Shown piece after piece: positions 33,120-35,683 of a stretch of 64,000 bases of DNA. This DNA is from Clostridia bacterium (lineage in GTDB: Bacteria > Bacillota > Clostridia > UMGS1883). The notes under the pieces were generated by a model, which worked only from the letters and a program-made list of their open reading frames with translations, made no database searches and was not told the origin of the DNA. The position numbers and the translations under genes are program-made. How positions within the stretch are numbered: position 1 is the stretch's first letter; each line of letters begins with the position of its first letter. The stretch is from contig JAZQAB010000011.1 of assembly GCA_045545055.1 (NCBI GenBank), forward strand, positions 2,594 through 66,593. Reading direction: 5' to 3'.

Positions 33120-33390
33120 TGGAGAGTGTAACCGTGAATCTTTCAAGAGAGGTGTCGGGTGGTGTGAGACACTAAAGTGAAGCGGACTACTGTAGCTCCT
33201 GAGTTGAAAGGAAGAAAGCTTGAGAAGTGATTAGACCCTTTCCGAGAATGCTGCGTCAGTGCATAGGGCTTGTTGGAGTCCGAAGGGGCAGCGGGGTAAC
33301 GTCCGGTGCAATTTGAGTGGTACCGCGGGTAATATGCTCGTCTCAAGGAAATTTCTTTGGGGCGTCTTTTTATGTTCCAAAGCAGGAGGT
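33120..33390 (+). promoter_or_regulatory. T-box riboswitch leader
   Basis: An untranslated leader of about 270 nt. Its 5' end has a Stem-I-like GA motif (acgatgatggagagtg ... agagagg). The 3' end carries a near-consensus T-box sequence, aatttgaGTGGTACCGCGGgtaa (consensus AATTAGGGTGGTACCGCGG), followed by a hairpin/T-run and the RBS aggagg. The UGGU bulge implies a discriminator A. The specifier codon is not resolved. Confidence 0.55.
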
Positions 33391-33397
33391 ATAAAAA

Positions 33398-35683
33398 ATG
33401 GAAGAAACAATGATGACCGGTCTTGACTTTAAAATCAGTGAGGTTGCCGCCAGAATCAAAGAACTTCGCCAGATAGACGGAATAAGCGTTGAAACAATGG
33501 CGAAGCTTACGGGTGTTTCCCGTGATGAGTATGTAGCATGTGAGGAAGGTAAGCATGACCTTAGCTTTGCTTTTATCTACAGATGTGCACTTGCATTTAA
33601 AGTCGGTGTAACAGATATTATCGAGGGTGTCAGCTCAAATCTTAAATCCTTCACGGTTACAAGAAAAGGCGACGGTCAGAAAATTGACCAGGCACATGGA
33701 ATGATTTATTATAACCTTGCGTCAGCTTTTAAGGGCAGAGTGGCAGAACCGCTTTATGTTCATGCAATATATGATGAAAGTGCAGAACGTGGCGACATGG
33801 AGCTTACCAGCCATGACGGGCAGGAGGTTGATATCGTTATCAGCGGCTCGCTTAAGGTTCAGGTTGGCGGTCACAGTGAAATTCTTCACGCAGGGGACAG
33901 TATTTATTACGACAGCTCCGCACCTCACGGAATGGTTGCGGTAGGTGGTCAGGACTGTGAGTTTTACGCTATCGTTCTTAATGGACAAAAGCAGGAAGTA
34001 AAAGAAGAAAAGTCCATCGTTAAAACAAATTACAAGCCTCACCGTGAATATAAGAGAGTGTATCATAACTTTATCGAAACTGTTGAGGACGAAAACGGTT
34101 GTCTTGAAAAGATTTCCTTTAAGAATGAGGATAAGTTCAACTTTGCATTTGATGTAATTGATGCCATTGCGGATAAAAAGCCCGAAAAGCTTGCAATGCT
34201 TCATCTTTCAAAGAATAAAGAGGAACGCCGCTTCACCTTTGCCGACTTTAAGCGTGAATCTGCACGCTGTGCAAATTATTTTGAATCAATCGGTATTAAA
34301 AAGGGAAGCAAGGTAATGCTCGTATTAAAACGCCATTACCAGTTCTGGATTGCGATGCTTGCACTTCATAAAATCGGTGCAGTTGCAATCCCTGCAACAT
34401 ATCTTTTGCAGGAACATGACTATGAGTATCGTTATAATGCTGCAGGTGTTGATGCAATCCTTTGCACTGCAGATGACGATATTGCAGACCGTGCCGAAAG
34501 CGGAGCAAAGAATGCAAAAACTCTGCGTGAAAAGATTATAGTAGGCGACAAAAAGGACGGCTGGAGAGATTTTGACGAGGAATACAAGGCTTTCCCCGAC
34601 ACCTATGAAAGAAAAGAAGATTCTCCCTGCGGAAATGACGATATGCTTATGTACTTTACTTCCGGAACAACGGGAAATCCGAAGATGGCACTCCACGCAT
34701 ACACATATCCTCTCGGTCATTTCCATACTGCAGACTACTGGCATTGCGTAGATCCCGAAGGGCTTCATCTTACCATTTCAGACACGGGCTGGGCAAAAGC
34801 CGCATGGGGTAAGATTTACGGTCAGTGGCTTTGCGAGGCGGCACTTTTTGTGTACGACTTTGATAAGTTTGATGCGGCAGACATTCTTCCGCTTTTCTCC
34901 GAATACGGTATCACAACCTTCTGTGCACCTCCCACAATGTACAGAATGCTTATGAAAGAAGATATTTCCAAGTACGATATGTCCTCCGTACAGCATGCAA
35001 ATACAGCAGGTGAAGCACTTAATCCCGAGGTTTATAAGCAGATTAAAAACCTCACAGGACTTAGGATTATGGAGGGCTTCGGTCAGACGGAAACCACCTG
35101 CCTTATCGGTAATCTCTACGGCAGAGAGTACAAGCTTGGTGCAATGGGTAAGCCTGTTCCCCTTTATGATGTTGACATTGTTGACCCCGACGGAAACAGC
35201 GTTGACGTAGGTGAAAACGGTGAAATCGTTATCCGCACAAGCGAGCGTGTACCCTGTGGACTCTTCAAAGGTTATTACAAGGACGAGGAAAAGACAAAGG
35301 AAGTTTGGCACGACGGTCTTTATCATACGGGCGATGTAGCATATCGTGATGAGGACGGCTTCTATTTCTATGTGGGCAGAGTTGACGACGTTATCAAGTC
35401 CTCAGGCTACAGGATAGGACCCTTTGAGATTGAGAGCGTTATTATGGAGCTTCCCTATGTTGTGGAGTGCGGCGTATCTGCAGCCCCCGATGAAATCAGA
35501 GGACAGGTAGTTAAGGCAAGCATCGTTCTTACAAAGGGAACCGAAGCCAGCGAGGAGCTTAAAAAAGAAATACAGATGTATGTAAAAGAGCATACAGCAC
35601 CTTATAAATATCCCAGAATCGTAGAATTCCGCGAGTCACTTCCCAAAACAACAAGCGGAAAAATCATCAGAAATCAGCTATAA
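33398..35683 (+). CDS. fusion protein: XRE-type HTH + cupin domain :: AMP-forming acyl-CoA synthetase (ACSM-like)
   Basis: The N-terminal ~200 aa contain an HTH_XRE (ISVETMAKLTGVSRDEY) and a cupin (HAGDSIYYDSSAPHGM). The remainder has adenylate-forming motifs: YFTSGTTGNPKMA, GFGQTETT, YHTGD, PKTTSGKIIR. It is one continuous 761-aa frame with no internal stop. Confidence 0.75.
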   Translation: MEETMMTGLDFKISEVAARIKELRQIDGISVETMAKLTGVSRDEYVACEEGKHDLSFAFIYRCALAFKVGVTDIIEGVSSNLKSFTVTRKGDGQKIDQAHGMIYYNLASAFKGRVAEPLYVHAIYDESAERGDMELTSHDGQEVDIVISGSLKVQVGGHSEILHAGDSIYYDSSAPHGMVAVGGQDCEFYAIVLNGQKQEVKEEKSIVKTNYKPHREYKRVYHNFIETVEDENGCLEKISFKNEDKFNFAFDVIDAIADKKPEKLAMLHLSKNKEERRFTFADFKRESARCANYFESIGIKKGSKVMLVLKRHYQFWIAMLALHKIGAVAIPATYLLQEHDYEYRYNAAGVDAILCTADDDIADRAESGAKNAKTLREKIIVGDKKDGWRDFDEEYKAFPDTYERKEDSPCGNDDMLMYFTSGTTGNPKMALHAYTYPLGHFHTADYWHCVDPEGLHLTISDTGWAKAAWGKIYGQWLCEAALFVYDFDKFDAADILPLFSEYGITTFCAPPTMYRMLMKEDISKYDMSSVQHANTAGEALNPEVYKQIKNLTGLRIMEGFGQTETTCLIGNLYGREYKLGAMGKPVPLYDVDIVDPDGNSVDVGENGEIVIRTSERVPCGLFKGYYKDEEKTKEVWHDGLYHTGDVAYRDEDGFYFYVGRVDDVIKSSGYRIGPFEIESVIMELPYVVECGVSAAPDEIRGQVVKASIVLTKGTEASEELKKEIQMYVKEHTAPYKYPRIVEFRESLPKTTSGKIIRNQL

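Follow-up and report, generated by a model that had tools for sequence, protein, structure and literature searches.

Introduction

The T-box leaders of Firmicutes genes such as valS, ileS and ilv-leu are the closest described relatives of the RNA that we report here, and the closest described pathway is reductive carboxylation. By this route, which is classical physiology, rumen and gut anaerobes and methanogens convert branched-chain volatile fatty acids to valine, isoleucine and leucine with a ferredoxin-dependent 2-ketoisovalerate oxidoreductase (VOR). It has been known for decades that rumen and gut anaerobes need or use isobutyrate, 2-methylbutyrate and isovalerate for valine, isoleucine and leucine. 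We analysed a 64,000 nucleotide (nt) stretch of DNA (the window) from a Clostridia bacterium (UMGS1883; assembly GCA_045545055.1, contig JAZQAB010000011.1, positions 2,594-66,593). It carries a T-box leader in front of a gene for a 761-residue protein, in which a helix-turn-helix (HTH) and a cupin domain are fused to an AMP-forming acyl-coenzyme A (CoA) synthetase (ACS). The literature that we searched does not tie the ligase step of the branched-acid route to specific genes of these Clostridia.

BirA, NadR and PutA are bifunctional enzyme-regulators with an N-terminal HTH; BirA is an adenylating enzyme whose acyl-adenylate controls repression. Of the ACS enzymes that resemble the one studied here, MacsMa from Methanosarcina acetivorans prefers 2-methylbutyrate (PMC10455477), and MbcS activates both 2-methylbutyrate and isobutyrate (PMC10026030). 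CoA, AMP-binding and cupin are absent from the T-box survey by Wels (2008), and acyl-CoA and oxidoreductase from that by Sun (2013). The paper describing TBDB contains no mention of CoA or AMP (PMC7778990). Our full-text literature search found no link between T-boxes and acyl-CoA synthetases or branched-chain fatty acid assimilation, and no description of a cluster of ACS, VOR and IlvE (branched-chain aminotransferase) genes, although an earlier mention is possible.

Results

A T-box leader precedes the fusion gene

A scan of positions 32950-33450 with an E-value threshold matched the leader to the Rfam T-box family RF00230 over the complete model (Table 1). The match is highly significant and lies below the Rfam gathering score of 93 bits; a scan of the whole window at gathering thresholds returned no match. 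The gathering score is a curation threshold and not a structural feature. In a sample of 14 loci from relatives, ten of the ACS-type leaders reached it (93.4-102.6 bits) and the others were slightly below. This T-box subfamily therefore sits at the Rfam gathering threshold, and default annotation misses many copies. An additional covarying hairpin between the F-box region and Stem III, part of which the Rfam model counts as an insertion, is probably a partial cause of the threshold-level scores.

Relatives were scanned with one genome per species, and at least 575 loci (species) encode relatives of the fusion. We kept 80 of these (L001-L080), which are 66-99% identical and come chiefly from metagenome-assembled genomes of ruminant and human gut Clostridia (labelled Oscillospiraceae, Acutalibacteraceae, Christensenellaceae and Congzhengia). 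The motif TGGTACC(G/A)CG is found 70-360 nt 5' of the gene in all 75 loci with sufficient upstream DNA. An alignment of 67 distinct leaders was made and the canonical T-box helices were placed on the window sequence. Standard base pairs occupy 91.5% of the alignment cells; this share drops to 32-52% once the 3' partners are shifted by 1-3 columns. Two-sided changes occur in 43 of 57 pairs when the antiterminator form is considered and in 45 of 58 for the terminator form; the observed covariation measures were reached by none of 500 shuffles. The invariant columns comprise the AGAGA of the AG bulge, GGUG..A in the distal loop, GCGUnA of the F-box-like element (invariant or almost so) and the entire UUGAGUGGUACC segment. 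TGGTACC is invariant in the 67 leaders.

Single-sequence folding was uninformative (z = -1.1 for the whole leader and +0.5 for Stem I), and the structure of the leader was decided by the covariation analysis. Taken alone, the antiterminator segment folds with the canonical 7-nt UGGUACC bulge (-9.2 kcal/mol). With -13.7 kcal/mol (z = -5.3) the terminator exceeds it in stability and forms the minimum-energy structure of the entire expression platform; the default state is therefore predicted to be termination. The promoter agrees with the sigma-70 consensus at 11 of 12 positions, and the arrangement GTTGACAA-N17-TGTGnTATnAT is kept 5' of the T-box in relatives.

A preliminary description of this DNA had proposed that a T-box leader controls the HTH-cupin::ACS fusion gene. 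The family match, the persistence of leader plus gene at all 75 testable loci and covariation in every variable helix bear this out. The details that it had named also stand: the agreement of AATTTGAGTGGTACCGCGG with the T-box consensus at 17 of 19 positions, the Stem I-like start with its GA and AGAGA segments (the 5' strand of the kink-turn and the AG bulge), and a terminator-like hairpin with a T-run ahead of the ribosome-binding site. Stem I and the antiterminator can both be built, with GUA as the specifier. The only strong promoter is located upstream of the leader, and relatives retain it in that position. One correction is needed, to the start of the leader: it had been placed at 33120, whereas the Rfam match begins about 13 nt further 5' and the promoter lies upstream of that.

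The specifier loop reads as a valine codon

In the TBDB definition, one counts backwards from where the specifier bulge ends, and positions 2-4 are the codon (PMC7778990). In our alignment the 3' end of the specifier loop is fixed at 33195, because the GGAG/CUCC helix that closes it is 100% paired in the 67 leaders and carries compensatory changes. Counted from this end, 52 of 54 orthologous leaders have GUA as their codon. The base that follows it is G or A. Since this base varies as expected for the conserved purine while GUA stays constant, the register is confirmed. The discriminator base that pairs with the UGGU of the T-box bulge is A73. This base fits tRNA-Val, tRNA-Ile and tRNA-Leu and does not fit tRNA-Cys, which has U73. 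The frames UGU (Cys), CUG (Leu), UAC (Tyr) and ACU (Thr) were considered and rejected on the basis of the register and the discriminator base. Judged by its codon, the T-box reads as valine-specific and would sense tRNA-Val.

The same way of reading was applied to a T-box of a different gene as a register control. The leader in question, from L051 (143 bits), yields CUC followed by A (Leu) and precedes leuA. At this locus the T-box (5926-6172) and the gene for a LeuA-type 2-isopropylmalate synthase (6260-7633) lie directly 3' of the fusion gene; the organism therefore possesses the de novo route to leucine at least in part.

The two remaining aligned loci, L056 and L058, read CUG followed by A (Leu). 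L057, which is outside the alignment, has the same CUG loop; in all three loci it is the leader of the window-type paralog (near 3694-3961) that reads AUCUGA followed by UUUC. The CUG specifier in these three loci may mark a switch toward isovalerate and leucine.

Orthologues of the gene are linked to VOR and aminotransferase genes in related species

The open reading frames (ORFs) of all loci were clustered and the gene contexts compared. A conserved order was found in about 20 of the more distant species: a first ACS paralog (~755 residues) with its own T-box, a second (~762 residues) with its own T-box, an NTPase, the VOR subunits and an aminotransferase. The second paralog is the orthologue of the window gene. 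The VOR part of the cluster consists of a 68-residue 2x[4Fe-4S] ferredoxin-type delta subunit followed by the alpha, beta and gamma subunits of a 2-oxoacid:ferredoxin oxidoreductase. The alpha subunit is VorB (3-methyl-2-oxobutanoate dehydrogenase; NCBIfam 541.6 bits, cutoff 399). The class IV aminotransferase matches the branched-chain aminotransferase equivalog (438 bits, cutoff 307) and ilvE_II (349 bits, cutoff 250). The leader of the upstream paralog carries AUC (Ile) in 13 of 13 cases, and that of the downstream paralog GUA (Val).

On these family assignments, the predicted products of the cluster are, in this order, one ligase labelled for Ile, one labelled for Val, VOR and IlvE, which together would cover the whole route from a branched carboxylate to a branched-chain amino acid. 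An operon of ligase, VOR subunit and branched-chain aminotransferase genes is thus present in about 20 related species and absent from the window. We regard the window gene as the orthologue of the operon's Val-type ligase and not as a member of such an operon. The GUA specifier and the VOR and IlvE genes of the relatives lend support to the earlier suggestion that the substrate is an amino-acid-derived carboxylic acid.

Several features of these clusters deserve description in their own right. Tandem paralogs occur in L054-L080, each with its own promoter and T-box; in L062, for example, a leader at 1051-1318 precedes a gene at 1358-3622, and a second leader at 3673-3940 precedes a gene at 3992-6280. 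A conserved P-loop NTPase of 215-225 residues (6280-6927 in L062, with equivalents in about 20 loci) always lies between the ligase and VOR genes. It gives weak matches to CbiA, ParA and NUBPL and no NCBIfam match, and it may serve VOR by delivering Fe-S clusters or as a maturation factor. In L069 the operon order is shuffled, with IlvE before the NTPase and VOR, and a carbon-nitrogen hydrolase of the nitrilase/amidase family (6307-7095) is located between the fusion gene and IlvE.

The catalytic domain belongs to the Macs/MbcS/ACSM type

The C-terminal 520 residues of the fusion protein match M. acetivorans Macs (PDB 3ETC) over their full length with 601 bits, the best match in the PDB. Matches to human ACSM2A (333 bits) and to 4-hydroxybutyrate-CoA ligase fall in the range of ~333-350 bits. 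By homology the domain can be assigned to the AMP-forming acyl-CoA synthetases for short- and medium-chain acids, as one of the Macs/MbcS/ACSM type. Among the NCBIfam models MbcS (NF047394) scores highest, with 432.4 bits against an equivalog cutoff of 850. The protein is accordingly best described as a relative of MbcS and not as an MbcS orthologue, and its substrate class is probably similar.

Only five differences separate the Val-type from the Ile-type paralogs at >=90% within-group conservation: R62K, I75L, R114K, D133P and A466G. The HTH-cupin module holds four of them. Residue 466, the remaining one, follows directly after the conserved (S/T)GW motif and is Ala in the Val-type, Gly in the Ile-type and Gly in MacsMa, which prefers a C5 acid. 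An Ala at this position fits a smaller pocket for a C4 acid. We suggest residue 466 as a candidate specificity residue, to which further residues must contribute. The codons of the T-boxes, the partners in the operon and the A466/G difference lead us to infer isobutyrate as the substrate of the Val-type enzymes and 2-methylbutyrate as that of the Ile-type.

The HTH-cupin module is conserved

The XRE-type HTH scores just below the Pfam cutoffs (HTH_19, 29.1 against 30.2; HTH_31, 24.3 against 27; HTH_3, 20.5 against 23), and the cupin domain is well above its own (Table 1). Measured as mean majority frequency, conservation of the HTH (0.81) is on a par with that of the catalytic domain (0.83). 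The cupin has a set of invariant residues that is common to both paralog types: H139, G141-Q142-E143, D145, G166-D167 and P176-H177-G178-M179. In cupin motif 1, only (S/T)H is left of the classical HxH. The invariant set looks like a preserved metal or ligand site. The N-terminal 200 residues weakly match 1Y9Q, a regulator composed of HTH_3 and cupin (E = 2.4e-4); C.AhdI is a further weak PDB match. In an AF2 model of the module the HTH has five predicted helices with predicted local distance difference test (pLDDT) values of 67-88, the only confident part; the mean pLDDT is 54 and the cupin is poorly modelled. Because the HTH and the cupin are conserved and the module resembles 1Y9Q, its sequence argues that it is functional and not decaying. 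Its role is probably regulatory.

Enrichment of 8-mers in 92 upstream regions yielded only the promoter hexamers (-35 and -10) and no conserved operator. The sequence TGTCAA, inverted relative to the -35 element, is found in 24 of the 92 regions compared with ~3% in shuffles. It takes lineage-specific positions and is absent from the window. We considered this repeat as an operator and rejected it; it is best explained as the -35 element of divergent neighbour promoters.

Surroundings in the window

The fusion gene has its own terminator and the next gene lies on the opposite strand, so the gene is monocistronic in the window. Back to back with the T-box promoter there is a near-consensus promoter on the minus strand (33003-33031; TTGACC, 17 nt, TATAAT), which faces upstream minus-strand ORFs. 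The nearest long one (32113-32829) encodes a 4Fe-4S (Fer4_16) protein, whose adjacency to the fusion gene is not conserved in relatives. The neighbours in the window include an iron-containing alcohol dehydrogenase (Fe-ADH), a radical SAM protein, YpsA, a Fer4 protein, an AraC-type regulator, a FAD oxidoreductase, PrmC and DUF1385, among others; no functional link with the fusion gene is apparent. Elsewhere, the beta subunit of a Na+-transporting oxaloacetate decarboxylase and a carboxylase subunit (HMGL-like and PYC_OADA) are encoded side by side at 25950-28613. Near them, on the opposite strand, are genes for a radical-SAM/BATS protein and an iron-containing alcohol dehydrogenase, likewise without apparent link to the fusion gene. 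A very long ORF with a TTG start (1956 residues) occupies 7017-12887 on the plus strand.

Table 1. Features of the leader and the fusion gene (window coordinates; pairing and compensatory changes refer to the alignment of 67 leaders).
Feature	Position	Strand	Remarks
Sigma-70-type promoter	33061-33089	+	TTGACA 33061-33066, 17-nt spacer, TATTAT 33084-33089; TG extension
T-box leader	33107-33348	+	Rfam RF00230, model positions 1-219 of 219, 84.6 bits, E 5.4e-19
Stem I	33113-33205	+	Kink-turn (K-turn), specifier loop with closing helix, AG bulge, distal loop; distal helix 97% paired
K-turn of Stem I	33115-33119 with 33200-33204	+	GAUGA with UGAGU; part of Stem I
AG bulge	33146-33150	+	AGAGA; invariant in alignment
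Distal loop	33157-33167	+	GGGUGGUGUGA; GGUG..A invariant
Specifier codon	33192-33195	+	GUA (Val) 33192-33194, purine G 33195; alignment columns 116-119
Stem II	33206-33242	+	GAAAGG...CCUUUC, upper GCUU/AAGU helix, purine-rich internal loops; covariation: helices 96.7% and 88.7% paired, compensatory change in 9/10 pairs
Stem IIA-like hairpin	33248-33264	+	F-box-like GCUGCGUCA (33250-33258); helix 80.6% paired
Extra hairpin	33266-33281	+	GGGCUU-GUUG-GAGUCC, between F-box region and Stem III; 94.7% paired, compensatory change in 4/6 pairs
Stem III	33288-33309	+	91% paired, compensatory change in 8/9 pairs
T-box sequence	33310-33328	+	AATTTGAGTGGTACCGCGG; 17/19 positions as in T-box consensus
Antiterminator	33313-33346	+	UUGAG/CUCAA and GCGGG/CUCGU helices around 7-nt bulge UGGUACC (33318-33324)
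Intrinsic terminator	33339-33374	+	11-bp stem 33339-33364, then UCUUUUUAUG; shares antiterminator 3' strand; 97.9% paired in relatives
Ribosome-binding site	33384-33389	+	AGGAGG, 8 nt 5' of ATG at 33398; read from sequence
Fusion ORF	33398-35683	+	761 residues; HTH + cupin + AMP-forming ACS
XRE-type HTH	33449-33631	+	Residues 18-78; just under Pfam cutoffs
Cupin_2	33800-33973	+	Residues 135-192; 47.7 bits, cutoff 27.2
AMP-binding (PF00501)	34166-35278	+	Residues 257-627; 214.9 bits, over Pfam cutoff
Ala466 codon	34793-34795	+	Sole catalytic-domain position separating Val-type and Ile-type paralogs
AMP-binding_C (PF13193)	35426-35662	+	Residues 677-755; 74.3 bits, over Pfam cutoff
Terminator of fusion gene	35686-35712	+	AAAAAAGUGCCUUCGGGCACUUUUUUU; read from sequence

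Discussion

We propose that this transcriptional T-box responds to uncharged tRNA-Val and induces the activation of isobutyrate, which would be followed by reductive carboxylation and transamination to valine. We consider this scheme likely to be correct. Transcription would start from the promoter ahead of the leader, and by default the leader would form the terminator and stop transcription before the gene. When valine is scarce, the anticodon of uncharged tRNA-Val(UAC) would pair with the GUA specifier in Stem I, and the tRNA elbow would dock on the platform formed by the AG bulge and the distal loop. Pairing of the free ACCA end of the tRNA with the UGGU of the T-box bulge would then stabilize the antiterminator and allow the 761-residue gene to be transcribed. 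The ACS domain is predicted to convert isobutyrate to isobutyryl-CoA, from which VOR would make 2-ketoisovalerate by reductive carboxylation and IlvE would make valine by transamination. The HTH-cupin module may provide a second regulatory layer. The biosynthetic direction is suggested because an AMP-forming ligase drives activation and a T-box would induce its gene on amino-acid starvation. In the window lineage the same pathway may operate with its genes apart.

Several observations weigh against this proposal. The window leader reaches 84.6 bits where the gathering score is 93. The gene is monocistronic in the window, and tblastn with the proteins of the relatives detected no VOR, IlvE or NTPase homologue in the 64 kb; the ligase-VOR-aminotransferase operon belongs to other species, and the orthologues that have this context are only 66-70% identical. 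No tRNA gene lies in the 64-kb window for a check of the cognate pair. On the enzyme side, the MbcS score is so far below the equivalog cutoff that the substrate specificity of MbcS is not transferable by orthology. Residue 466 is a putative acyl-pocket residue, which would align with Val310 of Salmonella acetyl-CoA synthetase. L056, L057 and L058 retain Ala466 with their CUG (Leu) specifier, so this residue alone does not determine specificity.

Two alternatives concern the acid and its fate. If the specifier were read in another frame, for instance as UGU (Cys) or CUG (Leu), the leader would sense a different tRNA and the acid would be unrelated to valine. The end of the loop, ACUACUGUAG, does hold overlapping triplets, and TBDB lists ambiguous frames in ~6,400 of ~22,700 T-boxes (PMC7778990). 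However, the fully paired closing helix pins the end of the loop, and it is the last loop base that varies between G and A while GUA is constant. The same register returns AUC for the tandem paralog and CUC for the leuA leader, and VorB and IlvE downstream are branched-chain enzymes. The pairing of UGGU with A73 also suits Val, Ile and Leu and not Cys. A misread frame is in our opinion very improbable. The chief rival to valine synthesis accepts the valine codon and holds that isobutyryl-CoA is mainly a primer for iso-branched fatty acids, isobutyrate being scavenged for lipids when valine is scarce, by analogy with MbcS of Staphylococcus aureus. MbcS is the best NCBIfam model for the domain, its demonstrated role is to supply primers for branched-chain fatty acids (PMC10026030), and the window gene stands alone with neither VOR nor IlvE within the 64 kb. 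The linkage to VOR and IlvE and the control through tRNA are less easily reconciled with primer supply. In about 20 species the orthologue directly precedes VorB, its partner subunits and IlvE with no T-box in between, and the specifiers are those of Val and Ile. A keto-acid oxidoreductase and a transaminase that are induced on starvation suit synthesis and not degradation, and T-boxes sense the charging of tRNA, not the state of the membrane. We judge a primer function unlikely overall and conceivable in the window lineage.

The HTH-cupin module raises two further readings. The protein might be primarily a transcription regulator that binds DNA through this module, with the adenylating domain acting as a sensor or as a generator of a corepressor, comparable to BirA, and with metabolic flux being secondary. 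The HTH is as well conserved as the catalytic domain, H139, E143, D145 and P176-H177-G178 of the cupin are invariant, the N-terminal 200 residues resemble the stand-alone regulator 1Y9Q, and of the five residues by which Val-type and Ile-type proteins can be told apart, four fall within the module. Set against this, the upstream regions are enriched only in -35 and -10 elements and offer no conserved operator, the TGTCAA repeat is accounted for by divergent promoters and does not occur in the window, and the HTH scores are slightly under the Pfam cutoffs. The ACS domain retains a full-length match to active enzymes, and the fact that it shares an operon with pathway enzymes points to a catalytic role. 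We regard a primarily regulatory protein as quite unlikely. The preliminary description had suggested that the enzyme doubles as a transcription factor; the conserved HTH, with no operator detected in the 92 upstream regions, speaks neither for nor against this. A related idea leaves the enzyme its catalytic function: the fusion would be a dual-function protein that activates isobutyrate and whose HTH-cupin module binds DNA, a pathway metabolite or both, so that it regulates unlinked genes or is itself under allosteric feedback control. Conceivable targets are vor and ilvE where these are not adjacent, as in the window lineage. This suggestion is tentative and, we think, has a small but real chance of being right. 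If it were correct, the dual function and the T-box together would amount to control in two layers, by tRNA charging at the level of the RNA and by a metabolite at the level of the protein. The Ile and Val paralogs, paired and each behind a cognate T-box, would then make up a modular system in which codons act as labels and allot each ligase its substrate.

Returning to the proposed valine-responsive ligase, its specifier would serve as a built-in label, with GUA marking a valine-linked and AUC an isoleucine-linked enzyme. The specifier codons yield substrate predictions that can be tested, for a family that is present in the genomes of at least 575 species, mostly uncultured bacteria of the ruminant and human gut. 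The conserved HTH-cupin module fused to an adenylating enzyme is unusual. There is also a point for annotation, since a T-box subfamily at the Rfam gathering threshold loses many of its copies to automatic annotation.

Comparison with known systems

In its logic of an HTH fused to a metabolic enzyme, the fusion protein is like BirA, NadR and PutA, and BirA shares the adenylating activity; the likeness is one of logic only and does not extend to homology. With 1Y9Q there is an alignment over both the HTH and the cupin, although a weak one. The fusion differs from all four in that no DNA target or operator was found for it in the 92 upstream regions.

Its catalytic part is closest to Macs and MbcS, which are likewise synthetases of the branched short-chain acyl-CoA type; both activate 2-methylbutyrate, and MbcS also isobutyrate. 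The full-length match to Macs (3ETC) includes the Trp of the ADYW motif, which corresponds to Macs Trp259, a residue reported as crucial to the binding of substrate. Unlike Macs and MbcS, the fusion has an additional ~240 N-terminal residues (HTH, cupin and linker) and is placed under T-box control, and its role would be in amino-acid synthesis and not in fatty-acid priming. A further difference is the residue behind the (S/T)GW motif, Ala in the fusion and Gly in Macs.

As an RNA, the leader is a regular T-box family member. It shares with the Firmicutes leaders of valS, ileS and ilv-leu the Stem I with K-turn, specifier loop, AG bulge and distal loop, as well as Stem II, the F-box region and Stem III. 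As in those leaders, an antiterminator with a UGGN bulge competes with a terminator, and the codon matches the pathway of the regulated genes. What sets it apart from them is the additional covarying hairpin before Stem III and the regulated gene, an HTH-cupin::ACS fusion, which is outside the gene classes of Wels (2008), Sun (2013) and TBDB. The preliminary description had called it a non-canonical T-box regulon member. This goes too far: the class of gene is absent from the surveys, and the logic of the control is the usual one, since in its context this is a gene for amino-acid supply, which is what a T-box normally regulates.

With the reductive carboxylation route the agreement is close. 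The gene set of the relatives (ligase, VorB and its partners, the ferredoxin-type delta subunit and IlvE) comprises exactly the required enzymes, and the genomes come from Clostridia of the ruminant and human gut. In the window lineage the ligase gene stands apart from the other pathway genes. Beyond what is established for that route, the relatives add identifiable genes and one ligase paralog per amino acid, each behind its cognate T-box.

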